This document shows, one piece after another, positions 32,374-56,744 of a stretch of 64,000 nucleotides of DNA. Position 1 is the first letter of the stretch. Every line of letters starts with the position of its first letter. The DNA lies in NCBI GenBank assembly GCA_016207885.1, contig JACQZE010000005.1, positions 197,158-261,157 on the forward strand, given 5' to 3'. The notes beneath the pieces are model-generated. The model worked only from the letters and a program-made list of their open reading frames with translations, ran no database searches and had not been told where the DNA came from. This DNA comes from Nitrospirota bacterium (GTDB taxonomy: Bacteria > Nitrospirota > Thermodesulfovibrionia > UBA6902). A program made the position numbers and the translations under genes.

Positions 32374-33201
32374 ATGGAAACGAATATTGCAGTTTTTAGA
32401 GGTAAGGGGATCAGAAAGACGATTCATAAGAATGAATGGTGGTTTGTCGTTGAGGATGTTGTATTGGCGCTTATTGAATCAAGCGACTCAAAACAATATA
32501 TACAGCGCATGAAACAGCGCGATCCCGAACTAGGCAAAGGGTGGGTACAAATTGTACATACCCTTTCCATAGATACTGAAGGCGGTCTTCAAAAGATGAA
32601 CTGCGCCAACACAGAGGGCATTTTCCGCATTATTCAGTCTATCCCATCCCCTAAGGCGGAGCCTTTCAAACGCTGGCTGGCAAAGGTTGGTTATGAACGA
32701 GTTCAGGAGATCGAAAATCCTGAACTCGGAACAAAGCGGACAAGAGAATTGTATAAGGCAAAGGGATATTCCGATGAATGGATAGAAAAGCGCATGCGCG
32801 GCATTGCGATCAGGGAAGAGCTTACAGACGAATGGAAGAAGAGGGAAGTGAAGGAGAAAAAGGAATATGAGATACTTACTGCCGAGATCGCAAAGGCTGC
32901 ATTCGGCGTAACCCCGGGTCAGCATAAGAAATTAAAAGGGTTGAAACGCGAGAACCTGAGAGACCATATGAATGACCTTGAGCTGATATTCTCAATGCTT
33001 GGCGAAGCTGCTACAACGGAGATAACTAAAGTTGATGATGCAAAAGGGTTTCATGAGAGCAAACGTTCAGCGCGCAAAGGTGGCGAGGTTGCAGGCATGG
33101 CGAGAAAAGACCTTGAGAAGAAGACGGGAAAGAGGGTTGTTTCAAAGGAGAATTATCTGACTGAACCTGAGAGCAGGAAAAGATTGGGAAGGAAGAAGTA
33201 G
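32374..33201 (+). CDS. DinD / Bro-N family protein (DNA-damage-inducible protein D-like), copy 1
   Basis: Starts METNIAVF, with an AGGAGG RBS. Bro-N-like N-terminus. From CANTEGIF onward the C-terminal ~200 aa are about 90% identical to the paralog at 47615-48445. Confidence 0.65.
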   Translation: METNIAVFRGKGIRKTIHKNEWWFVVEDVVLALIESSDSKQYIQRMKQRDPELGKGWVQIVHTLSIDTEGGLQKMNCANTEGIFRIIQSIPSPKAEPFKRWLAKVGYERVQEIENPELGTKRTRELYKAKGYSDEWIEKRMRGIAIREELTDEWKKREVKEKKEYEILTAEIAKAAFGVTPGQHKKLKGLKRENLRDHMNDLELIFSMLGEAATTEITKVDDAKGFHESKRSARKGGEVAGMARKDLEKKTGKRVVSKENYLTEPESRKRLGRKK

Positions 33202-33722
33202 AAAACTGAAGGGTTACTATGGGAAACGAAGCTAAGAAGACCGAACATGCCGGTTCTAAAAAAGGGAATGGCGCTTATTGGGGAATAAAGGCAGCAGCCC
33301 AAAAGGAGTCTAATAAAAAGCGCCGGGAGAATGATAAGTCTTATGTGTCGGAGCAAAGAGATATTTCAAAACCGATTGCTGACCGCTAATCTTTAGCCGC
33401 TTGCAATAGAAGCGAAAGAGGAAGCCCTTGCTGATGCTGAAGAATTGAGACATAAATGAACTACGCCGCCGCAAGCGGACGGGGTATCAAAACCCAAAAA
33501 CACAAGCAAGATGCGCCACAAGTGGCGGTGAATTAACACTTAAAGAGATTGAATTGGTTATTGAACGCAGAGAAAGAAGCGGGGGAACTGAAACATTGAT
33601 GATCTCATCATGCTATCTGTCTTGCATCATTTTATATGGCAAAAAATTGTCTACCGTAACCCCTTCAATGTTAAGTCCATGAACCGAGAAAAAAGAGTTA
33701 CGAGATCGTTGATAATAGGAAG

Positions 33723-34265
33723 TTATGTAAATAGTGCATAAAGCCATAACCAAATATTAATCGTTGGCAAATTAAATATAAATGAGATTGCATAAATAAA
33801 AGTGATTAACGATGCTATTGTCTCATAAAATTCAAAATCCAGTTCTCGTAATATATAAAGAGGGCCTATTGTATATAAAGCAACCATTGGCAAAAAAATT
33901 ATTCCAACTAATAACCCACTAAAAAATATAACAATAAAACCAAAAAATATTATGACACATAAAAGTAAAAACCAAGTCATTCCTGATGCTGAATCAATAA
34001 ATGCTGTAGTAACTAAAGCCCCTTCTCCACTATACTTAAAAATGCCTACTATACTCATTAGCATAAAGACAGTAAAGATTGAGTAAGTTGAAGGCTTATT
34101 AAAAATGTAGTCACGTGCAAAACATCGAGTTACAAATACAGACGCAATAAAAATCCCCCATGTTCCACTTGATAACACCTGTGAAGTAGCATTATCAGGT
34201 GTAACACATCCTGTTAAAAATAATGGCAAGATAATTAAAAAATATTTTTTTTGATTCTTTAACAC
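33723..34265 (-). CDS. AT-rich gene encoding a hypothetical polytopic membrane lipoprotein
   Basis: Lipobox-like LFLTGC followed by several TM helices. The ORF is AT-rich and bracketed by ~22-bp direct repeats. Confidence 0.45.
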   Translation of the reverse strand: MLKNQKKYFLIILPLFLTGCVTPDNATSQVLSSGTWGIFIASVFVTRCFARDYIFNKPSTYSIFTVFMLMSIVGIFKYSGEGALVTTAFIDSASGMTWFLLLCVIIFFGFIVIFFSGLLVGIIFLPMVALYTIGPLYILRELDFEFYETIASLITFIYAISFIFNLPTINIWLWLYALFT

Positions 34266-34408
34266 CGAAACACTATATCCATAAGTAATTGTTGCTTGTC
34301 ATCTACTATTTTGAGAAGAAACTATCAATCATTGATAATAGAAAGTTATTAATTACTTTATCTCTTCTTGATTCCCTAACATATAATATTTCTTTGCAAG
34401 GATGGATA

Positions 34409-35626
34409 TTACTTCTTAGCCACTATCTTCAAAAACCGTCTCTTCCCAACTTTCAGAAGGTATTCACCGGCAGTAAGTTTTTTATCAGGGTCATCAAACT
34501 TCTCATCATCAACCTTCACACCGCCCTGCTGCATGAGCCTTATGGCCTCTCCGGTGCTTTTGACTGAGCTGGAATCTTTTAAAACTTTGGGAAGCCAGAA
34601 GTCATTCTCATCTTCCAGTATGTAAACAGGAACGTCATCGGGCACGCCATGATCTTTAAAGATGCTGTCAAACTCTTCCTTCGCCTTGAGCGCCTCGTCT
34701 TTGCTGTGATACCTCTCAGTTATCTCAAGGGCAAGTTCTTCTTTTGCTTTTTTAGGATGGACAGAACCGTCTTTCAGTCCTTCTTTTAATTTAGCAAGTT
34801 CATCAATAGATATATGGCTTAAAAGTTCATAGTACTTGACCATTAGCTCATCGCTGATGGAGAGGATCTTTCCGTAGATATCTTTTGCAGGTTCTGAGAT
34901 GCCGATGTAGTTGCCGAGGCTCTTTGACATCTTCTTTATGCCGTCCGTTCCTTCAAGAAGCGGCATGATGACAAGCACCTGCGGCTCCTGTCCGTCCTTC
35001 TCCTGAAGCTCCCTACCCATCAGGAGGTTGAACCTCTGGTCTGTGCCTCCAAGCTCGACATCAGATTGAAGCACGACTGAATCATATCCCTGAAGGAGCG
35101 GGTACATGAACTCATGTATGCCGATGGAGTTATTATTTGCAAACCTCTTTTTAAAGTCGTCCCGCTCAAGCATGCGGGCAACGGTCTGTTTTGCCTGAAG
35201 CTTTATGATCTCTATGGTTGAGAGCTTATCAAGCCACTCGCTGTTGAAGCGTATTTCTGTTTTCTCAGGGTCAAGAACCTTAAAGACCTGGGTCTTGTAT
35301 GTCTCCGCATTCTTCAAGACCTCTTCCTTTGTAAGCGGCTTTCTTATCTCATTTCTTCCTGTAGGGTCGCCTATCATGCCTGTGAGGTCTCCGATTATGA
35401 GGGTGAGCTGGTGCCCGATATCCTGTAGCTGGCGCATCTTCTGAAGGAGCACAGTATGTCCGAGGTGGATGTCAGGAGCGGTGGGGTCAAAACCGACCTT
35501 CAGCTTTAAAGGCTTCTTCTCTTTGTAAGAGCGTTCAAGCTTCTTGAGAAGCTCCTTTTCGAGCAGGATCTCAAACGTTCCCCTCTTAAATATCTTCAGC
35601 TGTTCTTCAGGTTTAAGCATAGACAT
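34409..35626 (-). CDS. tyrS: Tyrosyl-tRNA synthetase
   Basis: HIGH (DIHLGHTV) and KMSKS (KKMSKSLGN) motifs, with a C-terminal S4 domain. Confidence 0.95.
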
Positions 35627-35671
35627 GGTTAGAAAAGAATACAGGATTTATGTATGAAGATTCAATAACAG

Positions 35672-37546
35672 CTACTTCTTCATCAGCGCCTTAACGCTTG
35701 GGAACGCATCCATGTTCGTGTGCGGGATGAACAATCCTGAGACATACTCATCCATAAATGAGCGTGAGACAGAGAGTTCGAGATATGTCATCCTCTCTGC
35801 TATCTTCTCGCCTTCTTTCCGCAGTTTTCTGGAGAGCGAGCAGAGGTATGCGCCTGTGACAGAGGTATTGCCTAAGAATTTAAACTTCTCTCTCGGCATG
35901 TCAGGAAGCATTCCAAGTATTATCGCTTTTTCAATATCAAGGAACTTTCCGAATCCGCCTGCTATATAGACCTTTTGAATATCATCAAATGTAAAACCAA
36001 CTTCGCTGAGAAGTATCGAAATGCCCGCGTAGATGGCGGCTTTTGCCCTGAGTATATTCTCTATGTCAGGCTCGGTCAGAACGATATCCCTGTCCTTTCC
36101 GTAATGGATCACGAACTCAAGTCCGTCCTCGCCCATCCTCACTCTCTTTGAAACATCTTTCTGCAGCTTGCCCCTCTGGTCAATGATGCCTGTGAAGAAC
36201 ATCTCAGATATCGCGTCGATCATTCCCGAGCCGCAGATGCCGAGCGGCTGAGATTCGCCTATCACCTCGATCTCAGGCTCAAGCGTGCTGCGGTTTATCT
36301 TCACATCCTCTATCGCTCCCTCTGTCGCGCGCATGCCGTGCTTCATGCCGCTTCCTTCAAAGCACGGGCCTGCTGAACATGCGGCAGCCACAAGCAACTC
36401 AGAGTTGCCGAGCACTATCTCGCCGTTGGTGCCGATATCCATAAATAGAGAGAGTTCCTCCCGTTTATACATCCCTGACGCAAGAACGCCTGAGACGATG
36501 TCCCCGCCTACATAACTTGAGACTGAAGGGAAGGTGTATACAGGCGTATTCGGGTTTAGATTTATTCCGAGCTCGCCTGTGAAAGAGATCGGGAAAGTAT
36601 TTGCAGTCGGAATATAAGGTTCCTCTCTTATTGATGAAGGGTCGAGGCTGAAGAAGAGCTGTGTCATTGTCGGGTTGCCCGCGATAACGAGCTGGTCTAT
36701 CGTATCAGGGTCTGTAGCGTGCGCCTTCATCAGCAGCGCCAGCATGATGTTGATGTCATTTATGACAGCCTCATTGATATTGGCGAGCTCGCCGTGCTCT
36801 GTCGCATGCACGATCCTTGTGATGACATCATCCCCGAACCTTATCTGCGAATTATATGTTGATGCGATATCAACTACCTTGCCGTCTGTCAGGTCGATCA
36901 GATAGAGCGCAAGCGTTGTGGTACCGATATCAACAGCAACGCCGTAGCGCGGCGACTCTTTATCTCCCGGAAAGATATTAATGACCTCATGGCAGTCATC
37001 GGTATGTATCGAGGATATCGTCACCTCCCATTTATCTTTTCTCAATGTCGCGGAAAGGTTCTTCAACAATCTGAAAGGCACCTTTAAACAGGAGAGTCCG
37101 TATGCATCCAGCCCTCTCTTGAGCCTCGCAAGGTCGCTGATATTGTCATCAAGTGACGCAGGAGGAAGCTGAAGCAGTGTCCTCTCAGTAAGCGGGTCGA
37201 GCTCTGCGCCTGAGGCTGCGAAGAGGGCCTGAAGGTCTTTGGACTTTTCAGTCGCTATCTTGCCTTCAATCGTGAGGACAGACTCTTTGGGAATATCTAT
37301 TGTAAGGTCGCTTTGCGGAAAGGTCTTGCAGGCAAGCGCATAGCCGCGGCCTATCTCTTCGTGTGAAAGCTTTGTCTTTGCTTTAGAATCTGCAGAGCCT
37401 GACTTTACGATAACCTTGCACTTGCCACAGGTGCCTTTGCCCGCGCATGAAGATGTAAGGAACACGCCCTCTCGGTTGAGGCTTTCAAGGAGCGATGAAT
37501 CAGCGGATGCAGGAATGACCTTGCCGGATGCGAGTGTTATCTTCAT
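35672..37546 (-). CDS. 2Fe-2S ferredoxin plus ASKHA-domain protein (RACo-like reductive activator of corrinoid proteins)
   Basis: N-terminal plant-type ferredoxin Cys pattern (SSCAGKGTCGKCKV...ALAC) and a C-terminal ASKHA/DUF4445 ATPase fold. I chose the start MKITLASG. Confidence 0.7.
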   Translation of the reverse strand: MKITLASGKVIPASADSSLLESLNREGVFLTSSCAGKGTCGKCKVIVKSGSADSKAKTKLSHEEIGRGYALACKTFPQSDLTIDIPKESVLTIEGKIATEKSKDLQALFAASGAELDPLTERTLLQLPPASLDDNISDLARLKRGLDAYGLSCLKVPFRLLKNLSATLRKDKWEVTISSIHTDDCHEVINIFPGDKESPRYGVAVDIGTTTLALYLIDLTDGKVVDIASTYNSQIRFGDDVITRIVHATEHGELANINEAVINDINIMLALLMKAHATDPDTIDQLVIAGNPTMTQLFFSLDPSSIREEPYIPTANTFPISFTGELGINLNPNTPVYTFPSVSSYVGGDIVSGVLASGMYKREELSLFMDIGTNGEIVLGNSELLVAAACSAGPCFEGSGMKHGMRATEGAIEDVKINRSTLEPEIEVIGESQPLGICGSGMIDAISEMFFTGIIDQRGKLQKDVSKRVRMGEDGLEFVIHYGKDRDIVLTEPDIENILRAKAAIYAGISILLSEVGFTFDDIQKVYIAGGFGKFLDIEKAIILGMLPDMPREKFKFLGNTSVTGAYLCSLSRKLRKEGEKIAERMTYLELSVSRSFMDEYVSGLFIPHTNMDAFPSVKALMKK

Positions 37547-37561
37547 TTTATTTCTTCTGTT

Positions 37562-37770
37562 CCCCTCTTGCCTAAAGCACCTACTTTTGGTAGGCAAAGA
37601 GGGCCTGCCTGCCGGTAGGCAGGGTTAGGGGAGATTTTGCAATTGTAGATCATTCCATTATTTCTTTATTGATGTATTAATTTTCTGATTATAATAAAGC
37701 ATTATTATAAAATCCCCCCGTGCCCCCCTTGCCTAAAGCACCTACTTTTGGTTGTTAAAGTGGGGATTTT
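37562..37770. repeat. Composite intergenic repeats: two copies of CTTGCCTAAAGCACCTACTTTTGG (37567-37590 and 37728-37751) with hairpin-forming partners
   Basis: Perfect 24-bp direct repeat. Copy 1 lies inside a CCTCTTTGCCTA/TAGGCAAAGAGG palindrome. Confidence 0.6.
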
Positions 37771-37790
37771 ATAAGAGACTTGCCTGATAA

Positions 37791-38762
37791 TTATTTTCTA
37801 AGCTCTTTGGCTGCTTCCATCGCGTGGTATGTGATTATGATGTCAGCGCCTGCCCTTTTTATGGAGGTGAGAATCTCCATCATGACCTTATTCTCATCTA
37901 TCCAGCCGAGCTTGGCTGCCGCCTTGACCATTGAGTATTCGCCGCTGACATTGTATGCGGCAACAGGCAGGTCAAAGGTATTTTTAATATCCGATATGAT
38001 GTCAAGATATGACAGCGCAGGCTTGACCATTACGATGTCAGCGCCTTCTTCTATATCAAGCGCAACTTCCCTAAGCGCCTCGATCCTGTTAGGAGGGTCC
38101 ATCTGGTAGCTCTTCCTGTCACCGAACTGCGGCACTGATTCTGCCGCATCCCTGAACGGGCCGTAAAAAGCAGAAGCGTATTTCGCGGCATAGCTCATTA
38201 TCGGTGTATCATCAAAACCGTGCTCATCAAGCGCGTCTCTTATATAACCTATCCTGCCGTCCATCATGTCTGAAGGGGCGATGATATCCGCGCCTGCCTC
38301 TGCATGCGAGAGCGCCTCTTTCGCAAGCACCTCAAGCGTCGGGTCATTCAGCACCTTTTCTCCCTTTATAATTCCGCAGTGGCCGTGGTCAGTATATTCG
38401 CACAGGCAGACATCCGTTATGACAAGAAGGCCGGGAACCTTATTCTTTATCGCCTTTACAGCAGTCTGAACCACGCCGTTCTTTTTATATGCCTCTGACG
38501 CATGGGCATCCTTATGCTCAGGAATGCCAAAGAGCAGAACAGCAGGTATGCCGAGCTTGTATGCTGCCTGCGCTTCCTTGACGATGAGATCCACAGACAT
38601 CTGAAAACATCCGGGCATCGCGTTTATCTTCTTCTTTACGTTCTTGCCAAAGGTCACGAACAATGGATATACGAGGTCATCCGTACTGAGATGTGTTTCA
38701 CGAACCAGCCTTCTTATGCTTTCATTTGCCCTGAGCCTTCTCGGCCTGTTTAGTAAAGACAT
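37791..38762 (-). CDS. hemB: Porphobilinogen synthase (delta-aminolevulinic acid dehydratase)
   Basis: HemB signatures (RPRRLR, the active-site Lys region ...VKPAL...). Confidence 0.9.
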
Positions 38763-38883
38763 ATCCGCTCCTTTTATATATGAAATAGGTTAAAAACTGC
38801 TTGTCTTGATTGATAAAGTATACCAGATTTGATAGTTTGAATCCCCTGTATTTCAGGGCTGTTTTCTTTTGATTGTTCATTAA

Positions 38884-39729
38884 TTATTCTTTTGGATCTT
38901 GCCATTTCCAAGAGCTTTCCTCATATCTATGCTCTTTGTCTTCATCACAATAACCAGAGTTATCATATGGTGGCTCTGGAAACCAGAGCATTGTAAGCAC
39001 TACCCCATAATCTATCATTGGCACGCAGCTTTCGAAAAGAGTAGTGGCATTATCTATCCCCTTCCCATTAAACCAGAACGTAGCATGTACTTCTTGTGAC
39101 TCGGCTTCTTGAACGACACCTTTTAGGGAATATGATGCTGTTAAAGTACCTGGAGAAACTTGTTTGCCATGTTCAATCCAGTATGGAAAAGAAGATGATT
39201 TTTGAAACCATTTTATTTTATTCTCTGAAGTTGCAATCAAGACACAACAATCTTCAGTATGTTTTGCGAATTTGATCGCGGTTGCTGTCAGACTTGTCCC
39301 ACAGTCATCGGCAAGTTCTTGAATACTTTCGAAATCTGGCTTGTATTGATAAAGCAATGGCTTAAATAGCCTTTCAGGTAAGAGAAATTCTGACGCAAAC
39401 TGATCAGCCTCTACTTCTTTTATATCCTTGTTCTTAAAGGGATTAGGTATACATTGATAGTTATTTTGATCATGAGAGGGGATACAATGATGAGCAATTT
39501 CATGCGCTAAGGTAAAATGCTTTCTACCTATATTTGTAATATTCTTATTTATGTTGATTACAACTTTGTCACCCACGCGAAGATACAACCCATCAAAACT
39601 ATCTGCATCAACTTCTACAACGTTGAGTTTTAAAGAGCAGGCAATAGTAAAAGGATTGACGGGCAAACTAATTACATTCAAGTCGTTTAGAAGCGTAGAG
39701 GCGTAATATTCAGGATTCAAGGCAATCAT
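38884..39729 (-). CDS. ImmA/IrrE-family Zn metallopeptidase (COG2856) with a C-terminal sensor-like domain; CapP-like
   Basis: HExxH (LAHEIAHH) plus E.EA..FA..LLP (EVEADQFASEFLLP), followed by a ~110-aa extra domain. It overlaps the upstream HTH gene by 4 nt. Confidence 0.75.
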   Translation of the reverse strand: MIALNPEYYASTLLNDLNVISLPVNPFTIACSLKLNVVEVDADSFDGLYLRVGDKVVININKNITNIGRKHFTLAHEIAHHCIPSHDQNNYQCIPNPFKNKDIKEVEADQFASEFLLPERLFKPLLYQYKPDFESIQELADDCGTSLTATAIKFAKHTEDCCVLIATSENKIKWFQKSSSFPYWIEHGKQVSPGTLTASYSLKGVVQEAESQEVHATFWFNGKGIDNATTLFESCVPMIDYGVVLTMLWFPEPPYDNSGYCDEDKEHRYEESSWKWQDPKE

Positions 39730-40067
39730 TTCCTTTCGGATTTCAAAAATTTGATCTGTCGTAAAATCATTTCTCTGTCTTTTGCCGACAGGTTTTTGAA
39801 ATCCCTGAAAAGTAGCTGCACATCGGGATCTTGGAGAATGTCTTCGAGTTCATCTTTAGATGTTTGTCCCAAAAGGCGACTGACAGTAGTCTTCAGAGCT
39901 TTAGCAAGCTTTTCTAATACCTCAGTTGATGGATATCTATCTCCATTTTCAATTTGACTGATTGTAGAGGGGCGAACACCTGCGATTTCTGCCAACTTCG
40001 TTTGGTTCCAGCCAGTTTTAATCCTTTCCGCTTTTATTCTATCCCCTACAGTTTCAGACATACTCAT
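39726..40067 (-). CDS. XRE-family helix-turn-helix transcriptional regulator; CapH-like
   Basis: Cro/C1 HTH (IKTGWNQTKLAEIAGVRPSTISQIENGDRYPS). Confidence 0.8.
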   Translation of the reverse strand: MSMSETVGDRIKAERIKTGWNQTKLAEIAGVRPSTISQIENGDRYPSTEVLEKLAKALKTTVSRLLGQTSKDELEDILQDPDVQLLFRDFKNLSAKDREMILRQIKFLKSERK

Positions 40068-40115
40068 TCTCCCTTCTTAAAATATATTGATATGATAACA
40101 GAATTAACAATAAAT

Positions 40116-40190
40116 AATCACGGCTGTGAAATATTAAATCACAGTGGCTTGACTTTATTGTCACAACTGTGATAATGTAAATCACGTTAG
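40116..40190. promoter_or_regulatory. Divergent promoter/operator region: four TCAC-Nx-GTGA inverted-repeat sites, and a TTGACT-N17-ATAATG promoter with a palindrome (TCACAACTGTGA) in its spacer
   Basis: Sites at 40116-40132, 40137-40149, 40160-40176 and 40179-40190. The -35 is at 40149-40154. Confidence 0.45.
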
Positions 40191-40233
40191 AGAGTTTTAG
40201 TGGGTTATAGATAATATTAAAAAGGAGGTGAAA

Positions 40234-40407
40234 ATGGCAAAGAATCCACCAATAGGAGATGGACATAGACATGGAGCAGTCAGAGATCGCTCACAGGTGC
40301 AAAATTCCAAAACAGAAAGATGGACGAAGCGCGACACTGAGACTGGTCGCTTCAAGGATGTTAAATCAGACGGAACTCCGTTTAAGGGAGTTCGCAAGGA
40401 AAAATAG
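40234..40407 (+). CDS. Small (57-aa) highly basic hypothetical protein
   Basis: AAAGGAGGTG RBS 6 nt upstream of the ATG. It encodes MAKNPPIGDGHRHGAVRDR...KGVRKEK, and is absent from the ORF track only because it is shorter than 60 aa. Confidence 0.5.
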   Translation: MAKNPPIGDGHRHGAVRDRSQVQNSKTERWTKRDTETGRFKDVKSDGTPFKGVRKEK

Positions 40408-40421
40408 GAGGTAGTAAGGAA

Positions 40422-40715
40422 ATGGAAAAAGAAAAAGAGCACAAGGAAGACCACAAAAATGAAGCACCCGGTCAAAACAAAGAATATGCGATCATTGTGA
40501 ATGGTCGGCAAAAGGTCGTGACCACAAAAGAGCTTTCGTTTGACGAAGTTGTCGCTTTAGCTTTTGACAATCCTCCGACTGGCCAGAATATCGTTTTCAC
40601 TGTGACATATAGACGGGGCGAAGGCAATAAGCCCGAGGGAACCTTGGTCGAGGGGGGAAAAGTCAAAATCAAAGAGGGAATAATCTTTAATGTCACAGCA
40701 ACTGATAAATCGTAA
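40422..40715 (+). CDS. Beta-grasp (ubiquitin-like / 'multiubiquitin'-like) small protein lacking a C-terminal GG
   Basis: A charged, disordered N-terminus is followed by ...YAIIVNGRQKVVTTKELSFDEVVALAF...VKIKEGIIFNVTATDKS, a pattern resembling ThiS/MoaD/Ubl beta-grasp proteins. Confidence 0.5.
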   Translation: MEKEKEHKEDHKNEAPGQNKEYAIIVNGRQKVVTTKELSFDEVVALAFDNPPTGQNIVFTVTYRRGEGNKPEGTLVEGGKVKIKEGIIFNVTATDKS

Positions 40716-42042
40716 CAGTGATCTAAAGCGTCTGCGAGACGAAGGCTATGATGTAGAGGTTAGGTCGAACCATCTACTGGTCAAGCAAGTTCCGTATGTG
40801 AACTCTATCAAAGAGATTAAGTTTGGTATACTCGTGTCCGAGTTGAATGTGGCTGGTGACATGACAACTACGCCTAAGGATCATACGGTTTATTTTTCGG
40901 GAGAACATCCTTGCGATAAGAACGGGGTAGCGATGACCAAGATCATAAATCAAAGTGTTCAAAAATCACTTGGTCATGATCTTATTGTTCACCATTATTT
41001 CTCAAGCAAGCCTTCGAGTGGCTGTTACAAGGACCATTATGAGAAGATGGCGACATATGTCGCCATCATTTCTAGTCCTGCTCATTCGATCGACCCAAGC
41101 GTGACAGCAAATACCTTAGCTGCCGGACATATTCTTGTTAATAAAGGTTTGCTGAGTTCTATTGAAAGTGAGGAGGAATTAGAAGGTATATTGGTTCATG
41201 AAATAGCACACGTTGAAAAGAGGCATGTATTAAAACAATATTATGCATTGTTAAACCAACAAGCTGCTAATGACATGATTGCTGCCATGGCTACTGGAAT
41301 AGCAGGCGCGGCTGCAAGAGATGGTAATAGAGATGTCGCAGCTATTGCAGTTGGGATATCTGTTGCTGCAAGGGTTGCCGTAGACATTTTTTACAAGGGG
41401 TATCCTGTAGAGCAAGAAAGAGAAGCTGATGAACTTGCAATTCTATATTTTGATCAAAATAATATGGATAAACAAATTCTTGAGAATGTGTTTAAGAAGT
41501 TAAAATTTTATAGTCTTGCAACTGTTGATAATCCTGACCCTGCATCTAATTCACACCCCTTGCTCGAAGAGAGAATTGCACGGGTTAAACAAACAAAGTT
41601 TAAGAAATTTAATAACGAACATTTTTTATATAAAGGACATCCTTCACAACCACCCGTGCAAATTGATCTTCTTTATCAAAGCACTTTCAATGATACTTCA
41701 AATATTTTCTTCTATATTAATGATTACAGTTTCTTTGATAAATACCAGAGTAAAGAAGCAGAAAAAATATATTTAACATTAGAAGATGATAACGGAAAGC
41801 AAAAATATGCACTTAGTTTGCTTGACCAAGTAAGGGATATGTGGGGTGTTTATTTAGTTTTAAACATCAACAACGCAACGACCATCAAGAATTTAAACAA
41901 TATTTCTATAATTATTGAGACAAAAGATGAGGATATGATGAGAAACAAAATGGAAGTAATCGACTTCAGTAAAGGTAGTATTGATTACGAGTGCCATATA
42001 GAAGCAGAAAAGAAAGGTGGACATTGTTTGTGTATTCATTAA
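40690..42042 (+). CDS. Two-domain protein: an N-terminal alpha/beta domain with an 'HPC' motif (possible E2/UBC-like domain) fused to an M48-like Zn metalloprotease (HExxH...ExxAD)
   Basis: HEIAHVEKRH, then about 75 aa later EQEREADELA (the M48 third-ligand motif). N-terminal ...HTVYFSGEHPCDKNG.... Visibly AT-rich. It overlaps the upstream gene by 26 nt. Confidence 0.6.
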   Translation: MSQQLINRNSDLKRLRDEGYDVEVRSNHLLVKQVPYVNSIKEIKFGILVSELNVAGDMTTTPKDHTVYFSGEHPCDKNGVAMTKIINQSVQKSLGHDLIVHHYFSSKPSSGCYKDHYEKMATYVAIISSPAHSIDPSVTANTLAAGHILVNKGLLSSIESEEELEGILVHEIAHVEKRHVLKQYYALLNQQAANDMIAAMATGIAGAAARDGNRDVAAIAVGISVAARVAVDIFYKGYPVEQEREADELAILYFDQNNMDKQILENVFKKLKFYSLATVDNPDPASNSHPLLEERIARVKQTKFKKFNNEHFLYKGHPSQPPVQIDLLYQSTFNDTSNIFFYINDYSFFDKYQSKEAEKIYLTLEDDNGKQKYALSLLDQVRDMWGVYLVLNINNATTIKNLNNISIIIETKDEDMMRNKMEVIDFSKGSIDYECHIEAEKKGGHCLCIH

Positions 42043-42087
42043 TAGATTTATTTCACCCTCCCGAGTAAAAAGTCCCTCCACAAGATA

Positions 42088-42110
42088 GATTCCGGACAAG
42101 CCGGAATGAC
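42088..42110. repeat. Half-copy of the palindromic repeat (GATTCCGGACAAGCCGGAATGAC) upstream of alaS
   Basis: Identical to the right arm of the 1326-1396 element. Confidence 0.6.
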
Positions 42111-42213
42111 GCAAACACGGAACTGAGGCATAACCAACAATACAAGAACCATAAATATATACAGTTTTTTGTATAATACGGTATCAAAAAACCAGCAGGA
42201 GAAAAATCCCGGA

Positions 42214-44850
42214 ATGAATAGCAGCGATATAAGAAAACTCTTCATCGATTTCTTTAAGGAGAAAGGGCATAAGGCGCTTCCAAGCTCCCCTCTTTTGCCT
42301 GTTGATGACCCTACACTTTTATTCACCAACGCAGGTATGGTCCAGTTCAAATCCATCTTTCTGGGCGATGTGGAGAGCCAGCACAAACGGGCTGTGACCG
42401 TTCAGAAGTGCCTGAGGGCGGGCGGCAAGCACAATGACCTTGAGAATGTCGGAAGGACGGCAAGGCACCATACCTTCTTTGAGATGTTAGGCAACTTCTC
42501 ATTCGGCGATTATTTCAAGAGAGAGGCGTGTGAATGGGCTTGGGAATTTCTAACTGAAAAGGTTCATCTCCCTGCTGACAAGCTGATGATAACCGTTTTC
42601 AATGATGACGACGAGGCTGCGGAGATATGGCAGAAGCATATAGGAATACCTGCCAACCAGATATTCAGGCTCGGAGAGAAGGACAACTTCTGGCAGATGG
42701 GCGACACAGGGCCGTGCGGGCCGTGCTCTGAGATACTGATAGACCAGGGGCCGGAGATGGGATGCGGAAAGCCCGGCTGCATGGTTGGATGCGACTGCGA
42801 CAGATACCTTGAGATATGGAACCTCGTATTTATGCAGTACAACAGGGATACGGCAGGCAAACTTCACCCGCTGCCCAAGCCGAGCATTGACACAGGCATG
42901 GGGCTTGAGAGGCTTGCCGCTGTGCTGCAGGGAAAGACGAATAACTTTGACTCTGACCTATTCATGCCGATCATAAAATATGTTGAAGGTATTTCAGGTA
43001 AAAAATACGGGAAAGATAAAGCAAACGATGTCTCTATGAGGGTCATAGCCGACCATATAAGGTCATCGGCATTCGTGCTTTCAGAGGGGCTTGTGCCTTC
43101 AAATGAAGGAAGAGGTTATGTCTTAAGAAGGATCATAAGAAGGGCTGCAAGGCACGGGCTCATGTTAGGCATCAAGGGGCCGTTCCTGCATGATGTGCTT
43201 GACGCGGTATATAAGATGATGTCCGGCCCGTATTCTGAACTGAATGAAAATATCGGGATGAGCAAAAAGGTCCTTAAGTTTGAAGAAGAGAGATTCGCGC
43301 ACACACTCTCTTCAGGCATGGATCTGCTGGACAAGGTAATTAATGAGGTAAGGGCATCGGGCAAAGAGACGATACCGGGCACCGAACTCTTTAAACTTTA
43401 TGACACATTCGGATTTCCGCTTGACCTTGCGAAGGACATTGCTGAAGACAACGGACTGAAGATAGATGAAAAAGGTTTTAATGAGGAGATGGAGCTTCAG
43501 AAGACAAAGGCGCGCGCATCATGGGTCGGCGGCGGAGAGGAAGTTTCAGGCATATACAAAGAGATAGAAACTCTTGTCGGAGCCACTGAATTCACAGGCT
43601 ATGACGCTCCTGATAAAACAGAGAGCGTGGTCAAGGCGATGATAAAGAACGGCGCCCTCATCAAAGAAGCAAAAGAAGGTGAAGAGGTTGAGGTAGTTTT
43701 AGACAGGACACCGTTCTACGGCGAATCAGGCGGACAGGTGGGCGATACCGGCATGATGGAGCATGGCGAAGGGCTATTGAAACTTGAGGTGATTAATGCA
43801 AAAAGAACCCACAACCTTATCCTGCATTCAGTAAGAATAATCAAAGGCACGTTAAGGCCTGACATGTATGTGAAGCCTGTTATAGATGAAGAGAGAAGAG
43901 CATCTGTCAAACGCAATCATACAGCCACGCATATTCTGCATGCGGCTCTGAAGGAAGTGTTAGGCGACCATATAAAACAGGCAGGCTCGTTTGTAGCGCC
44001 TGACCGGCTGAGGTTTGACTTCAACCACTTCTTTGCCATGGATGAAAGGGAGATCAAAGAGGTCGAGCGGATAGTGAATGAAAAGATAATCAGGAATATG
44101 CCTGTCCATGTCTCTGAGACATCGCTTAACAATGCGATAGCACACGGAGTGGTGGCGCTCTTTGGTGAAAAATACGGAGAGACTGTCAGGGTCGTAAAGG
44201 CGGGAAATTACTCTGCCGAACTGTGCGGGGGAACGCACTGCAGCGCGACAGGTGATATCGGCCCGTTCAAGATAATCTCTGAAGGAAGCGCGGCAGCAGG
44301 CATAAGAAGAATAGAGGCGCTGACAGGATTTTCCGCGCATAAGTTCATTAATGACGAGGAAGACGAGCTTAAAAAGACGGCAGGGCTTCTTAAGGCAACC
44401 CCTCTTAATGTAGCAGATAAAGTGCGCAAGGCCTTAAGCGACCTCAAGCTGCTTGAAAAAGAGATGGAAAAGCTGAGGAGCAGTTCAGCCTCTAATGATA
44501 TAGAGAGCATCCTTGGAAAGACGGTTGAGATAGACGGCATAAAGGTGCTTGCGCACAAGATCGACGGGCTTGATATGAAGACGCTCAGAGACCTGGCGGA
44601 CAAGCTGAAAGATAAGATGAACTCAGGTGTCATAGTCCTCGGCTCCATACTGAACGGCCAGGCATCATATGTATCCCTCGTAACAAAAGACCTCGCCTCG
44701 CGTTTCCACGCGGGGAACATATTAAAGAGCGTCACCGGCGGCAAGGGCGGCGGCAGGGCTGATATGGCTCAGGGCGGGACAAAAGATATCGATGGAATTG
44801 ATATGGCAATCTCCTCAGTACCTGATATAATCAAGGGAGAGACAAAATAA
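42214..44850 (+). CDS. alaS: Alanyl-tRNA synthetase
   Basis: Class II aaRS catalytic domain, editing domain and C-terminal DHHA1, about 880 aa. I chose the ATG at 42214 (MNSSDIRKLFIDFF). Confidence 0.95.
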   Translation: MNSSDIRKLFIDFFKEKGHKALPSSPLLPVDDPTLLFTNAGMVQFKSIFLGDVESQHKRAVTVQKCLRAGGKHNDLENVGRTARHHTFFEMLGNFSFGDYFKREACEWAWEFLTEKVHLPADKLMITVFNDDDEAAEIWQKHIGIPANQIFRLGEKDNFWQMGDTGPCGPCSEILIDQGPEMGCGKPGCMVGCDCDRYLEIWNLVFMQYNRDTAGKLHPLPKPSIDTGMGLERLAAVLQGKTNNFDSDLFMPIIKYVEGISGKKYGKDKANDVSMRVIADHIRSSAFVLSEGLVPSNEGRGYVLRRIIRRAARHGLMLGIKGPFLHDVLDAVYKMMSGPYSELNENIGMSKKVLKFEEERFAHTLSSGMDLLDKVINEVRASGKETIPGTELFKLYDTFGFPLDLAKDIAEDNGLKIDEKGFNEEMELQKTKARASWVGGGEEVSGIYKEIETLVGATEFTGYDAPDKTESVVKAMIKNGALIKEAKEGEEVEVVLDRTPFYGESGGQVGDTGMMEHGEGLLKLEVINAKRTHNLILHSVRIIKGTLRPDMYVKPVIDEERRASVKRNHTATHILHAALKEVLGDHIKQAGSFVAPDRLRFDFNHFFAMDEREIKEVERIVNEKIIRNMPVHVSETSLNNAIAHGVVALFGEKYGETVRVVKAGNYSAELCGGTHCSATGDIGPFKIISEGSAAAGIRRIEALTGFSAHKFINDEEDELKKTAGLLKATPLNVADKVRKALSDLKLLEKEMEKLRSSSASNDIESILGKTVEIDGIKVLAHKIDGLDMKTLRDLADKLKDKMNSGVIVLGSILNGQASYVSLVTKDLASRFHAGNILKSVTGGKGGGRADMAQGGTKDIDGIDMAISSVPDIIKGETK

Positions 44851-44873
44851 AGGGTTGTTTATTATGCACCAGT

Positions 44874-44931
44874 TGCGTCATTCCGGCTTGTCCGGAATCC
44901 TTCTGGGAAAAGATTCCGGACAAGCCGGAAT
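44874..44931. repeat. Complete copy of the palindromic repeat (GTCATTCCGGCTTGTCCGGAATC, a 12-nt loop, then its reverse complement) just after alaS
   Basis: Perfect 23-bp arms. It probably also serves as the alaS terminator hairpin. Confidence 0.7.
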
Positions 44932-44976
44932 GACAGATTTTAAACTGACTTTAAATAATAATTCAGGAGGTTTGTT

Positions 44977-45291
44977 ATGTCATTATCAGATATCTTTCAA
45001 AAGACGTTCATGGCAGGGCTTGGGATGCAGGAGAAGTTCAAGGAGTTTGTAGACGAGCTTATCGATAAAGGCGAGCTCAGCGAGGCGCAGGGCAAGAAGC
45101 TCTTTGACGAATGGTCTATAAAGGCCGGCAAGACCAAAGAAGACTTTGAAAAGAACATAACCGACCTTATTAATAAATCACTCGATACGGTCAACATACC
45201 TAAGAAATCGGAAGTCGAGGAACTTAATAAAAAGCTCCAGGCTCTTTCAAAGAAAGTTGACAAACTCGAAAGATCGCTCGACAAAAACTGA
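44977..45291 (+). CDS. Phasin-family / PHA-granule-associated-like coiled-coil protein
   Basis: 104-aa helical protein with a phasin-like N-terminus (IFQKTFMAGLGMQEKFKEFVDELIDKGEL). Confidence 0.5.
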   Translation: MSLSDIFQKTFMAGLGMQEKFKEFVDELIDKGELSEAQGKKLFDEWSIKAGKTKEDFEKNITDLINKSLDTVNIPKKSEVEELNKKLQALSKKVDKLERSLDKN

Positions 45292-45300
45292 GTATAAGAT

Positions 45301-47007
45301 ATGGCATTCTCAGGATTGCTAAGGTTCTGGCGGGGATACAGGAATATAGCCCGCATAAGACAGATAGTAAATGTATTTCTTAAACACGGCTTCGGGCAGT
45401 TCATCGAACAGATAAACCTTCAAAGATTTATCCCTATCAGAAAGAGGATCAGGGTATTCGGCCAGTGGAAGGAGCCTGAAAAAATATCTATCCCAGCAAG
45501 GCTCAGGATAGCCTTTAGCGAGCTCGGCCCCTCCTTCATAAAGCTCGCCCAGATCCTCTCATCAAGGCCTGACATTATAACCAGCGAGTTTGCTGACGAG
45601 TTCAGAAAACTTCAGGATGATGTGCCCCCCTTCCCTGCTGAAGAAGCGAGGGCCATGATAGAGTCCGAGCTCAAGAGATCCGTCGGAAAGATATTCGCGG
45701 ATTTTGAAGACAGGCCGTTTGCCGCCGCATCCATAGCCCAGGTTCATAACGCAACCTTAATAACCGGGGAGAAGGTCGTTGTAAAGGTCCAGAGGCCGAA
45801 CATCCATAAAGTCATAGAGACCGATATATCGATATTGAGATTTATAGCAAGCCTTATGGTCAGGCACATTCCCGAAGCATCGGTATTCAACCCCGAAGGC
45901 ATTGTCGATGAATTCGCGAAGACCGTCACAAAAGAGCTCGACTTTATCGGAGAGACAAGGAACGCGCAGCGTTTCAGAAGGAATTTTGCTGACAGCGAGG
46001 CCGTCTATATCCCGCTTGTCTATACTGATTTTGTAACTGAAAAGGTCATGGTAATGGAGAGGCTTGAAGGCGTAAAGATAGATGACATCAAGGCTATCGA
46101 CACTCTGGGCGTTGACAGGCGCAAACTTGCGAAAGACGGGCTCGATGCCTATTTTAAGATGATATTTGAGGACGGCTTCTTTCACGCTGACCCGCATCCC
46201 GGGAATATGTTCGTATTCCCGGACGGCAGGCTGGGGCTCATGGACTTCGGCATGGCCGGCAGGCTGACACCTGAGATGATGGAGAGCATAGCCAATACAT
46301 TTCTGGCATTCTTTAATAAGGACTTCGACAGGCTGATAGATGAGTATATCGAGCTCGGCCTTTTAAGCGACGGTATAGACCAGGATATCTTCAGAAGAAA
46401 GTTCAAGAGCGACCTTGTGGACCTTCTGGAACCTGTCTACGGCCTCACAATCTCAGAGATAAATTTTATTGATTACATTGAAAAGGTCACACGGCTTGCC
46501 ATAAAACACGGGCTGACGATACCGTCCGATCTCATACTCGTCAATAAAACCATTTTGATGCTTGATAATATAGGCCGGCAGCTTGACCCTAACTTTAATT
46601 TCATAGCCGCTGCAGAGCCGTATGCTGCAAAACTTGTAAAGAGCCGGATCAATCCTCAGAGGATCTTTGATAAGGCTAAAGGGAACATCTCGGAGATCAG
46701 CAGCCTTCTCATAGAGACGCCGAGACAGATCAACAGGCTATTGGCAAAGGCGTTAAAGAACGAGTTAAGCCTGAAGGTCGACCCCATTGGAATAGACAGG
46801 CTTATTAGAGATATCGACCGTTCAAGCAACCGGCTCGCCTTCAGCGTGATAGTGGCAGCTATCATTATCGGCTCGTCGCTCCTGATCCAGTCAGGCATAG
46901 GCACGACGATATTCGGGCTGCCTGCGATAGGAGCGATCGGATTCTTTATCGCATTCCTGCTCGGCTTGTGGCTTCTGATATCCATTCTAAAATCAGGAAG
47001 ATTATAG
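45301..47007 (+). CDS. ubiB: UbiB/ABC1-family atypical kinase
   Basis: ABC1 motifs (AAASIAQVH, HADPHPGNMFV, DFG) and C-terminal TM helices. Confidence 0.85.
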   Translation: MAFSGLLRFWRGYRNIARIRQIVNVFLKHGFGQFIEQINLQRFIPIRKRIRVFGQWKEPEKISIPARLRIAFSELGPSFIKLAQILSSRPDIITSEFADEFRKLQDDVPPFPAEEARAMIESELKRSVGKIFADFEDRPFAAASIAQVHNATLITGEKVVVKVQRPNIHKVIETDISILRFIASLMVRHIPEASVFNPEGIVDEFAKTVTKELDFIGETRNAQRFRRNFADSEAVYIPLVYTDFVTEKVMVMERLEGVKIDDIKAIDTLGVDRRKLAKDGLDAYFKMIFEDGFFHADPHPGNMFVFPDGRLGLMDFGMAGRLTPEMMESIANTFLAFFNKDFDRLIDEYIELGLLSDGIDQDIFRRKFKSDLVDLLEPVYGLTISEINFIDYIEKVTRLAIKHGLTIPSDLILVNKTILMLDNIGRQLDPNFNFIAAAEPYAAKLVKSRINPQRIFDKAKGNISEISSLLIETPRQINRLLAKALKNELSLKVDPIGIDRLIRDIDRSSNRLAFSVIVAAIIIGSSLLIQSGIGTTIFGLPAIGAIGFFIAFLLGLWLLISILKSGRL

Positions 47008-47017
47008 GAGACAAACC

Positions 47018-47455
47018 ATGACTATCGATGAACTGAAACAAAGCTGTGAAGATGAATTTAAGAATATAGACATTATCCTTCAGCACCTGCACTCTGTTTA
47101 TGACAAAGGCAAATTAGAACATACGATTGCCGAACAGGCGTCAATAGCCACCTTTATCATAAACATCTACAGCGGTGTTGAAACAATCCTGAAGCAGATG
47201 CTTGTCTACGACAAGCTCGATATAAAAGACGCCCCGGGATGGCATGAAATAGTCTTAAAAAAAGCGAACGAGATCGGCATACTCCCCCCGGCTCTCTACC
47301 AGGACCTGTCGAGATACCTTGCATTCCGCAATTACTTCATCTACAACTATATCTTCAACATCAAATGGGATGACCTGAAGGCGCTGACGGATGCCGTAAG
47401 TGAATTGATAACAAAAACAAAAACCGAGGTTGAGGAGTATATACAGACGATATAA
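47018..47455 (+). CDS. HEPN-fold (DUF86/HepT-like) protein with a degenerate Rx4-6H motif
   Basis: ...LAFRNYFIYNY... aligns to the HepT RNxxxHxY motif, with the His replaced by Tyr. No nucleotidyltransferase partner is adjacent. Confidence 0.35.
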   Translation: MTIDELKQSCEDEFKNIDIILQHLHSVYDKGKLEHTIAEQASIATFIINIYSGVETILKQMLVYDKLDIKDAPGWHEIVLKKANEIGILPPALYQDLSRYLAFRNYFIYNYIFNIKWDDLKALTDAVSELITKTKTEVEEYIQTI

Positions 47456-47553
47456 CATCTGTATATGAATCGCTTTTTGTCGTCTTGAAGTGCAGCGGAA
47501 AGCCGCTGTACTTCCCCATCCTATACCGTCAGTTCTGCAATTAAATAATTATC

Positions 47554-47581
47554 TTGGCAAAAACCATTTAGAGGAATAGAA
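47554..47581 (+). promoter_or_regulatory. Sigma70-like promoter TTGGCA-N17-TAGAAT for dinD-like copy 2
   Basis: Same hexamers and spacing as the copy 1 promoter. Confidence 0.55.
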
Positions 47582-47614
47582 TAAGGCATTATCCTTTCGG
47601 TCATGAGGAGGCAG

Positions 47615-48445
47615 ATGGAAACAAACATCGCAGTTTTTAGAGGCAAAGAAATAAGGAAAACAATTCATAAGAATGAATGGTGGTTTTCGATCATTGACAT
47701 ATGTGCTGCGCTTACTGAAAGCGTCGATGCGGGAGCCTACTGGAGAAAATTGAAACAAAGGCTCAAGAAGGAAGGAGGCGAGGTCGTGACATTTTGTCAC
47801 GGACTGAAATTGCCTGCCGCTGACGGAAAAAAATACGAAACCGATTGCGCCAACACCGAGGGCATCTTCCGCCTTATCCAATCCATTCCTTCACCCAAGG
47901 CAGAGCCTTTCAAGCGCTGGCTGGCAAAGGTCGGCTATGAACGCGTGCAAGAGATAGAAGACCCGGAATTGGGTACAAAGCGGACAAGGGCTTTATACAA
48001 GGCAAAGGGCTACTCTGATGACTGGATAGAGAAACGGATGCGCGGCATTGCTATTAGAGAAGAGTTGACGGACGAATGGAAAAAGCGGGAAGTGAAAGAG
48101 AAAAAGGAATATGAGATCCTCACCGCAGAGATTGCAAAAGCAGCATTCGGCGTAAACCCAAGTCAGCATAAGAAATTAAAAGGGTTGAAACGTGAAAACC
48201 TGAGAGACCATATGAACGACCTTGAACTTATTTTCTCTATGTTAGGTGAAGCTGCAACAACTGAGATAACGCGGGTTGATGATGCAAAGGGTTTTCATGA
48301 GAGCAAACGTTCAGCACGCAAGGGCGGGGTTGTGGCAGGTAAGGCGCGAAAAGACCTTGAGAAAAAGACGGGCAAGAGGGTTGTCTCAAATGAAAATTAT
48401 CTTTCGACTTCTGAAAGTGTGAAAAAACTGGAAAGGAAGAAGTAG
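47615..48445 (+). CDS. DinD / Bro-N family protein, copy 2, immediately upstream of cas3
   Basis: METNIAVF start with a GAGGAGG RBS. It ends 11 nt before cas3. Confidence 0.65.
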   Translation: METNIAVFRGKEIRKTIHKNEWWFSIIDICAALTESVDAGAYWRKLKQRLKKEGGEVVTFCHGLKLPAADGKKYETDCANTEGIFRLIQSIPSPKAEPFKRWLAKVGYERVQEIEDPELGTKRTRALYKAKGYSDDWIEKRMRGIAIREELTDEWKKREVKEKKEYEILTAEIAKAAFGVNPSQHKKLKGLKRENLRDHMNDLELIFSMLGEAATTEITRVDDAKGFHESKRSARKGGVVAGKARKDLEKKTGKRVVSNENYLSTSESVKKLERKK

Positions 48446-53001: not shown

Positions 53002-53050
53002 AAAGATACAAATGTAGCCGAATAAATAAATTCTAAAGGAGGAATAAAAA

Positions 53051-53944: not shown

Positions 53945-53948
53945 TCCA

Positions 53949-56561: not shown

Positions 56562-56744
56562 TTATCAGTTCCACGGGTCAGTGGAGCAATCAGTCCGACA
56601 TTTCTTTTGTAAGAGCCAAATTTACTATCGTTCATCAACCAATTTTTTTCCTTTGAATTTTTATGGAATTAGTATAAAATTCAATTAAGAGACACGCCTG
56701 AATTGAACAGATCATATAATATATTTCCATAAGGAGAGCATCCG

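Follow-up and report, generated by a model that had tools for sequence, protein, structure and literature searches.

The 64,000-nucleotide stretch of contig JACQZE010000005.1 of a Nitrospirota bacterium analysed here (the window) encodes two proteins that combine a Bro-N domain with a DinD/DdrC-like C-terminal domain, the gene for one (copy 1) standing alone and the gene for the other (copy 2) heading a type I-C cas operon. Both genes are new members of the catalogued PDC-S13/Bro-N family, members of which were found repeatedly embedded, co-oriented and with near-zero gaps, in I-C, I-E and V-A CRISPR-Cas loci and in type I/III restriction-modification (R-M) operons, the most frequent CRISPR position being just before cas4/cas1. 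Taken as a whole, we favour on balance a picture in which this conserved family would serve as an accessory of DNA-cutting immunity with a swappable cassette, and within that picture the identity of the genes, the selection acting on them, their embedding and the cassette are held with high confidence. The two genes had been reported in an earlier note on this DNA and were confirmed as + strand open reading frames (ORFs) with a Pfam Bro-N domain:

32374..33201, + strand: copy 1, a 275-amino-acid (aa) Bro-N + DinD/DdrC-like protein (PADLOC PDC-S13), stand-alone gene (from Pfam, PADLOC and its position in locus L083)

47615..48445, + strand: copy 2, a 276-aa Bro-N + DinD/DdrC-like protein (PDC-S13), heading the type I-C cas operon (from Pfam, PADLOC, AlphaFold and Foldseek)

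Family membership and position in immune operons

The Pfam Bro-N match (PF02498) covers aa 12-105 with E values of 1e-13 for copy 1 and 2e-14 for copy 2, the scores of 52.0 and 54.4 bits lying well above the gathering cut-off of 25.6. Both proteins match the PADLOC PDC-S13 hidden Markov model (HMM; 286 positions) over nearly their entire length (aa 2-269 of copy 1, E 7.8e-111; aa 2-272 of copy 2, E 1.1e-121), and the full-length match among the PHROGs is family 15286, the function of which is not annotated. NCBIfam gave no match to either protein and Pfam no domain beyond Bro-N, so that an ANT/KilA-C domain is lacking. PDC systems are, going by the accessible part of the source, candidates nominated by their embedding in BREX, DISARM or type I R-M operons (bioRxiv 10.1101/2024.01.29.577857), with the name 'PDC-S13' itself not found in indexed literature text. 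Members are annotated as 'Bro-N domain-containing' or, for some of them in the annotation of the Joint Genome Institute (JGI), as 'DNA-damage-inducible protein D'.

Database searches with either copy gave over 8000 homologues; the best 120 share 79-92% identity and belong to Nitrospirota, Thermodesulfobacteriota, Chloroflexota, Desantisbacteria and further groups. At least 478 relatives were present when a single genome of every species was scanned, the best 80 being 67-86% identical and including the candidate phyla radiation (CPR)/Patescibacteria, Omnitrophota, Planctomycetota, Bacteroidota, Elusimicrobiota and one metagenome-assembled genome (MAG) of Woesearchaeota. Clustering at 50% identity gave 927 clusters at E below 1e-30, with the family keeping 70-90% identity across many phyla. 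The copies in Woesearchaeota (DPANN; L078) and in Patescibacteria (L012, L014, L021 and L025) are 68-75% identical to the Nitrospirota protein, pointing either to very wide horizontal spread or to exceptional constraint, with contamination of the MAGs a possible source. A Smithella MAG (L073) carries Bro-N/DinD-like genes in tandem (3061-3897 and 3951-4781, with identities to copy 2 of 49% and 69%), a further instance of diverged paralogs within one genome. The description of the proteins as phage antirepressor-like, given in the earlier note, did not hold: the proteins have no ANT/KilAC domain, relatives occur in only 4 of 50,697 phage records (all small metagenomic records, all below 60% identity), and full-length matches are rare on plasmids (9 of 72,556). 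As the family is essentially absent from phage genomes and rare on plasmids, 'phage antirepressor' is a misnomer for it.

The neighbours of the family were surveyed at the 80 genome loci most similar to the query. Directly downstream, Pfam identified Cas1 at 13 loci, ResIII at 8, Cas4 at 6, Cas3-like proteins and RhuM at 3 each and Cas12a at 1, and upstream Cas6e at 7, Cas4 at 5, Cas7 and N6_Mtase at 4 each and HsdM_N and WYL at 3 each; the R-M components ResIII, N6_Mtase and HsdM are thus immediate neighbours at about 10-15% of loci. Cas genes were found within five genes of the family member at 33 of 79 genome loci, and nearby at no fewer than 12 of 64 metagenome loci with three or more genes, the latter an independent sample, likewise of best matches (59-80% identity to the query), and displaying the same architectures. 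Four co-oriented architectures recur, with gaps mostly between -8 and +30 nucleotides (nt): cas6e > BRO > cas1 in I-E loci, cas7 > BRO > cas4 > cas1, cas4 > BRO > cas1, and the arrangement of the window, BRO > cas3-cas5-cas8c-cas7. The earlier note had drawn attention to this last arrangement, and the occurrence of DinD-like/Bro-N genes beside cas genes does recur, including in that form at L003, L010 and L048 (gaps of 550, 56 and 185 nt). Commoner than placement upstream of cas3 is a position that separates the effector genes from cas4/cas1 in I-C and I-E loci, and even among homologous I-C operons the place of the gene varies, with at least three positions seen. One member with a type B cassette (see below) lies directly upstream of a Cas12a (Cpf1) gene (L057:7050-10886), which extends the association beyond type I systems.

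The conservation of the family member differs from that of its neighbours. Across the loci with shared cas genes, mean identity to the copy 2 side is 84.5% for the Bro backbone, 71% for Cas1 and 62% for Cas4, and only 39-46% for Cas7, Cas3, Cas5 and Cas8c; at L048 the backbone is 97% identical with Cas proteins at 27-43%. The varied positions and these differing identities indicate that the association with cas genes is recurrent, is of multiple origin and has a history separate from that of the cas genes themselves. The family is as such a CRISPR-associated accessory by position in more than one subtype (I-C, I-E and one Cas12a locus). Within the searchable literature no paper was found linking Bro-N or DinD to cas loci.

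The two paralogs, their promoters and the variable cassette

End-to-end alignment divides the two window proteins into four stretches, with 23 of 24 residues identical over aa 1-24, about 30% identity over aa 25-77, about 95% over aa 78-262 and about 60% over the final 14 aa. The earlier note had put identity at about 90% over the C-terminal 200 aa and had the N-terminal 60 or so aa differing; the similarity is indeed high and its extent is better given as 95% over aa 78-262, while the N-terminal difference is confined to aa 25-77, the first 24 residues being all but invariant. Within aa 78-262 the nucleotide differences fall mainly at third codon positions (9, 5 and 74 at positions 1, 2 and 3), as had been noted by eye, and Nei-Gojobori estimates of 0.034 for nonsynonymous (dN) and 1.29 for synonymous divergence (dS) give an omega of 0.026, rising to 0.09 over the whole gene. 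Values of 0.026-0.09, far from 1, bear out the purifying selection that the earlier note had suggested and mean that both copies are intact and under strong purifying selection with neither decaying.

Conservation extends upstream of both genes, and downstream of copy 2 lies a complete type I-C set (cas3, cas5, cas8c, cas7, cas4, cas1 and a CRISPR array). The features concerned are:

32302..32373, + strand: copy 1 promoter/leader block (-35 TTGGCA at 32313-32318, -10 TAGAAT at 32336-32341, ribosome-binding site AAGGAGG)

47543..47614, + strand: copy 2 promoter/leader block (-35 at 47554-47559, -10 at 47577-47582, ribosome-binding site GAGGAGG)

48457..50658, + strand: cas3 (HD + helicase; Pfam DEAD, Cas3-like_C_2 and HD)

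50690..55597, + strand: cas5c, cas8c (Csd1), cas7, cas4 and cas1 (Pfam Cas_Cas5d, Cas_Csd1, Cas_Cas7, Cas_Cas4 and Cas_Cas1)

56179..56644, + strand: CRISPR array with the 33-nt repeat GTCGCGCCCCGCACGGGGCGCGTGGATTGAAAC

A promoter-like TTGGCA-N17-TAGAAT is present at 32313-32341 and 47554-47582, and within the window such blocks are confined to these two sites. The earlier note had called the promoters identical, which is true of this motif and not of the blocks around it, which are near-identical at 63 of 72 nt (87.5%). Set against the 60% identity at third codon positions this is a significant excess (binomial P = 3e-7), and the promoter/leader block is therefore constrained, being more conserved than silent sites. 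Similarity between the copies ends abruptly at -72 and at the stop codon, so the unit common to both is promoter, leader and gene. Beyond the window the upstream block is not kept in other genomes, save for a TTGG(C/A)A-N17-TAAAAT layout in two Nitrospirota loci. The leaders gave fold z-scores of only -0.4 to -0.5, Rfam had no match anywhere in the window, and an inverted repeat AGGAATA...TATTCCT of copy 1, found by reading the sequence, is broken in copy 2, leaving no convincing operator. Control of the two Bro promoters by the nearby CapH/CapP pair (38884-40067, IrrE/DdrO-like), on the model of ddrC and its regulators IrrE/DdrO, was considered and dropped, because the TCACAnnTGTGA-type palindromes of the CapH-side intergenic region are absent from them.

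The stop codon of copy 2 ends at 48445 and the GTG of cas3 begins at 48457, confirming the 11-bp spacing given in the earlier note, and the gap holds no terminator-like site and no + strand promoter-like site. Co-transcription of copy 2 with cas3 is plausible on this layout, with the copy 2 promoter probably also driving the predicted cas operon.

The earlier note had recorded that the N-termini differ; the divergent stretch behind aa 24 is not a product of gradual divergence but a discrete exchanged cassette:

32446..32601, + strand: copy 1 variable cassette, type B, aa 25-76 (three helices + beta-hairpin wing of the Bro-N domain)

47687..47845, + strand: copy 2 variable cassette, type A, aa 25-77, the commonest type in the family

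Family-wide, aa 25-77 sort into a few discrete types each of which is conserved across phyla, with type A the majority (including copy 2), type B in copy 1, L038, L053, L057 and more loosely L048, and the remainder being types C and D. Identity of the backbone is uncorrelated with that of the cassette (r = -0.10), such that L033 and L054 share 97% of the backbone and 49% of the cassette, and copy 2 and L048 97% and 30%. The exchange can be followed at the copy 1 position in the closest available genome (L083), where the resident gene is 93-100% identical in nucleotides to copy 1 upstream and from +240 to +750 and only 42-47% identical from +90 to +236, with its cassette being 80-87% identical to that of copy 2, level with the rest of that gene. 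The simplest reading of this pattern is that the locus was first type A and that the window lineage swapped about 155 nt for type B, a swap that may have used the invariant flanks …NEWWF and CANTEGIFR…. More generally, recombination exchanges the cassette between genes that are nearly identical elsewhere. In the AlphaFold model it comprises helices 26-33, 39-52 and 57-60 and a beta-hairpin at 62-79, the predicted helix-turn-helix and wing of the N-domain. Redundancy of the two paralogs is improbable, given that their cassettes are of different types. No description of a swappable cassette in this family was found in the searchable literature.

Structural relationships, proposed role and alternatives

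A single-sequence search of the PDB gave no match, and an AlphaFold model built with 88 close homologues (predicted local distance difference test, pLDDT, of 59) resolved only the N-domain, left the C-domain uninterpretable and was discarded. With representatives at the 50% level added, the copy 2 monomer was modelled with a pLDDT of 93.2 and a predicted template-modelling (TM) score of 0.81. Foldseek searches of the PDB with this model returned six significant matches, all to DdrC chains of Deinococcus radiodurans (7qvb, 7udi and 8u0g; E 5.3e-7 to 3.9e-5, probability 1.00), over 235-256 aligned columns and thus full length, with the next match at E 0.65. Sequence identity to DdrC is 11-14%. 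The order of secondary-structure elements agrees with DdrC (beta-hairpin, winged helix-turn-helix, helix and helical C-domain), and a sequence profile of the family ranked DdrC first of 177,635 PDB sequences at 19.9 bits, through the C-domain only, with profile positions 149-263 aligned to DdrC residues 115-223 and the motifs W..RL.S...R.EL and KG.K…RD..T..EL in common.

A second relationship leads to E. coli DinD (274 aa; dinD taken from L081:5761-6585), in which Pfam recognises Bro-N over aa 10-105 (E 1.5e-7) and whose aa 137-257 matched an HMM of 79 diverse family members at 30.9 bits (E 9e-12 in a single comparison). A single two-domain architecture is therefore common to DinD, DdrC and the PDC-S13 family. 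DdrC, which is induced by damage, forms a domain-swapped homodimer; its N-domain consists of a beta-hairpin and a winged helix-turn-helix, and its C-domain has four helices. It attaches to nicks and double-strand ends and, by bridging two such sites, compacts or circularises the DNA (PMC9303277; PMC11347143). It is termed Deinococcus-specific in these papers, neither of which mentions DinD or Bro-N (PMC9303277; PMC11347143). Although the literature describes DdrC as lacking homologues, profile and fold suggest that it belongs with E. coli DinD in one superfamily of proteins combining Bro-N and a helical domain. DinD belongs to the LexA regulon (PMC6590174) and is listed among regulators of the RecA filament, in a citing paper's account of that work (Uranga et al. 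2011, cited in PMC4457935). No account of the homology of DinD, DdrC and PDC-S13 was found in the searchable literature, where only one review mentions the names DdrC and DinD together.

By analogy with these relatives, the protein may dimerise and bind breaks or ends in DNA, or damage intermediates, arising from interference, restriction or spacer capture, the DNAs in question being those made by Cas3, Cas12a or HsdR or processed by Cas4-Cas1-Cas2. It would then stabilise, hand over or shield this DNA and/or restrain RecA, with the cassette setting the DNA or partner recognised or presenting the surface targeted by phage inhibitors. Such a break-binding accessory role is a real possibility that falls somewhat short of being probable. 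More doubtful is the wider proposal that DinD, DdrC and PDC-S13 form one superfamily of dimeric break/end sensors or clamps recruited repeatedly by DNA-cutting immunity. On that proposal, insertion at the type I effector/adaptation junction and in R-M operons would serve to capture or protect cleavage products for prespacer supply, control of self-damage or blocking of RecA rescue of invaders, and the swappable winged-helix cassette would set specificity or allow escape from phage inhibitors.

Several points weigh against the accessory picture. The 80 loci of each survey are those closest to the query and not a random sample, their ORFs come from our own simple ORF calling, and the phmmer panel used to label cas genes (the I-C proteins of the window and E. 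coli I-E proteins) detects I-C-like and I-E-like Cas proteins only. Recognisable defence genes are lacking beside copy 1 and at over half of the family loci, so the protein is not dependent on a cas partner, and immune effectors are not typically conserved to such an extreme degree. For the DdrC match the target-normalised TM-scores are modest (0.41-0.51) and the root-mean-square deviation is high, and the profile E value of 0.0032 is weak. Neither BLASTP against DinD (E 0.03-0.05) nor hhalign with a shallow alignment (probability 0.5%) was significant, and it takes a diverse profile to reveal the relationship; the label 'DinD' used in the earlier note is thus apt for the architecture, Bro-N with a homologous C-domain, and not for pairwise similarity.

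Of the other explanations, an autonomous single-gene anti-phage system, whose Bro-N cassette senses phage DNA or protein and whose presence in cas and R-M operons reflects merely the nesting of defence genes, is unlikely, although it accounts for several observations. The full-length PDC-S13 match is in keeping with it, as is the definition of PDC candidates by embedding in BREX, DISARM and type I R-M, so far as the accessible text of that source goes; copy 1 and many relatives stand alone with their own promoter, and the shuffling of discrete cassette types resembles balancing or diversifying selection on a recognition surface. However, no effector domain (nuclease, TIR, pore-former or nucleoside triphosphatase) was detected beside Bro-N and the helical DinD/DdrC-like domain, conservation across phyla above that of Cas1 is unusual for a phage-facing sensor, and the strong preference for the place just before cas4/cas1, where genes overlap or nearly touch, is more suggestive of integration into the operon than of random nesting. 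In a role as transcription regulator of the adjacent immune operon, the winged helix of Bro-N would bind an operator, such as the conserved promoter of its own gene, and switch cas or R-M genes on after damage or infection in the manner of an antirepressor or anti-silencer; most loci, however, have the gene in mid-operon (cas6e > BRO > cas1 or cas7 > BRO > cas4) without a promoter of its own. Bro-N is a DNA-binding domain that occurs in phage regulators, the 72-nt promoter/leader is constrained in both copies, and copy 2 heads its operon, all of which would suit a regulator, yet beyond a TTGG(C/A)A -35 in two Nitrospirota the block is not kept in other genomes, it offers no convincing inverted-repeat operator or RNA structure, and the fold is that of DdrC, which binds DNA by its structure and not by its sequence. 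We consider regulation of the adjacent operon improbable.

A selfish or hitch-hiking cassette, spreading horizontally into often-transferred defence operons with no immune benefit, would explain the occurrence of the family in CPR bacteria, Omnitrophota, Bacteroidota, Nitrospirota, Desulfobacterota and one archaeal MAG, its independence of flanking cas genes as at L048, and its three or more positions in homologous I-C operons. Insertions are nevertheless seamless, with no flanking transposase, integrase, terminal repeats or attC-like sites, the position of copy 1 is stably inherited between genomes, and the saturation of silent sites around a frozen protein implies long-term selection for function, making this explanation very improbable. 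The last alternative holds that one copy is a decaying duplicate and that the repeats are poised to delete or invert the intervening segment. The copies are indeed direct repeats of about 0.9 kb with 83-86% nucleotide identity, but decay was ruled out by the dN/dS values, with frames, promoters and ribosome-binding sites intact in both. The rearrangement of the intervening 14 kb that the earlier note had envisaged is implausible, as that DNA carries tyrS, hemB and alaS and the longest identical run is 31 nt; deletion by recombination between the repeats would remove these three essential genes. On dN/dS and gene content the decaying-duplicate explanation is refuted and retains hardly any credence.

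The two window genes are ordinary members of the family, and the family is of more interest than its PADLOC candidate label would indicate. Its backbone is more conserved across phyla than Cas1, and few genes separate the interference module from the adaptation module of I-C and I-E systems so regularly; it also occurs in R-M operons. Structure and profiles tie it to DdrC, with its bridging of nicks and double-strand breaks, and to DinD, with its control of the RecA filament. Together the evidence gives a concrete hypothesis for how DNA-cutting immune systems may handle their own breaks and fragments, for which the discrete exchangeable cassette types provide a natural handle for dissecting specificity. 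Were the homology to DdrC true, it would end the view of DdrC as restricted to Deinococcus; on the wider superfamily proposal, the family would be a previously unrecognised, widespread CRISPR-associated factor. The CRISPR embedding, the swappable cassette and the DinD-DdrC-PDC-S13 homology make it a good experimental target.

Genomic surroundings and comparison with known systems

The segment separating the copies is no dispensable island: it carries tyrS, hemB and alaS and genes for a RACo-type activase and a UbiB/ABC1 kinase, as well as a CapP/CapH-like regulator pair, a Multiubiquitin + DUF6791-M48 operon and a HepT-like protein. L083, a Thermodesulfovibrionia MAG with about 91% nucleotide identity over the common stretch, shares with the window the order hemD, histidine kinase, GGDEF, manC, 146-aa ORF, 189-aa ORF, Bro, tyrS, RACo and hemB, and from this synteny copy 1 occupies an inherited chromosomal position. 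The synteny from copy 1 through tyrS, RACo and hemB also speaks against the rearrangement of the intervening DNA envisaged in the earlier note. Synteny stops right after hemB (38843), where L083 continues with mnmE, yidC, yidD and rpmH (15041-20828) and the window with the CapP/CapH operon, alaS, ubiB, the HepT-like gene, copy 2 and the I-C CRISPR-Cas locus, so that the break is either a rearrangement or a large insertion, with housekeeping genes involved. A separate insertion of 1.2 kb with a low GC content of 39% (33159-34400), absent from L083, separates copy 1 from tyrS. It holds two ORFs without a family match, one basic and 56 aa long (33219-33389), the other of 180 aa (33723-34265, - strand) and resembling a multi-pass membrane protein or a lipoprotein.

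Several neighbouring features were recorded along the way. Upstream of copy 1, and also in L083, lie a 146-aa ORF with a weak Ribosomal_S11 Pfam match (31018-31458), containing a 24-nt tandem repeat (31174-31222), and a 190-aa ORF without a family match (31538-32110). Directly upstream of copy 2 is a HepT-like_2 (PF20797) toxin-type protein (47018-47455) with no obvious MntA-type nucleotidyltransferase partner, the preceding gene being the UbiB/ABC1 kinase. Between hemB and alaS, a CapP-like IrrE/M78 peptidase (38884-39729, - strand) and a CapH-like helix-turn-helix protein (39726-40067, - strand) are divergent from a 57-aa ORF (40234-40407), a Multiubiquitin-domain protein (40422-40715) and a protein with DUF6791 and an M48 peptidase (40690-42042), with TCACAnnTGTGA-type palindromes in the CapH-side intergenic region; 38884-42042 looks like a CapH/CapP-controlled ubiquitin-like defence-type operon. 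The 19-nt palindrome ATTCCGG(ACAAG/CTTGT)CCGGAAT occurs five times in the window (1329, 1375, 42089, 44880 and 44913), and two 32-nt copies in inverted orientation (42083-42114 and 44873-44904) bracket alaS exactly; it is a repetitive extragenic palindrome (REP)-like element or a shared terminator. The RACo-hemB intergenic region contains a 45-nt direct repeat (37559-37603 and 37720-37764, 87% identical) with a hairpin inside.

Among known systems, E. coli DinD (PcsA) is of the same length class (274 aa) as the window proteins and has the same layout of Bro-N and C-domain; its gene is solitary and chromosomal, whereas members of the PDC-S13 family are often embedded in defence operons. DdrC is regulated by IrrE/DdrO and is not linked to immunity. 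With phage antirepressors and BRO proteins (Bro-N with ANT/KilAC) the window proteins have the Bro-N domain in common, together with weak PHROG matches to 'anti-repressor Ant' over aa 1-105 and BFVD fold matches to Bro-N, KilA-N and 'repressor domain' proteins, but antirepressors carry ANT/KilA-C and reside in phages, and the window genes have neither feature and sit among chromosomal housekeeping genes. The swapping of target-recognition domains in HsdS of type I R-M systems offers an analogy only, in that a conserved scaffold carries a discrete, reshuffled variable module in several conserved types, as here; HsdS is an unrelated protein, with only a marginal PADLOC 'Specificity_I' match seen (E 0.0015), and no inversion or shufflon machinery accompanies the genes described here. 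A further comparison is with PDC-S13 as catalogued. Relatives lie inside R-M operons, preceded by N6_Mtase/HsdM and followed by ResIII, fitting the PDC criterion as set out in the accessible text. There PDCs are set by embedding in BREX, DISARM or type I R-M, whereas the window copies are the head of a cas operon and a stand-alone gene; CRISPR embedding, cassette exchange and a relationship to DdrC and DinD do not feature in that part of the PDC paper.

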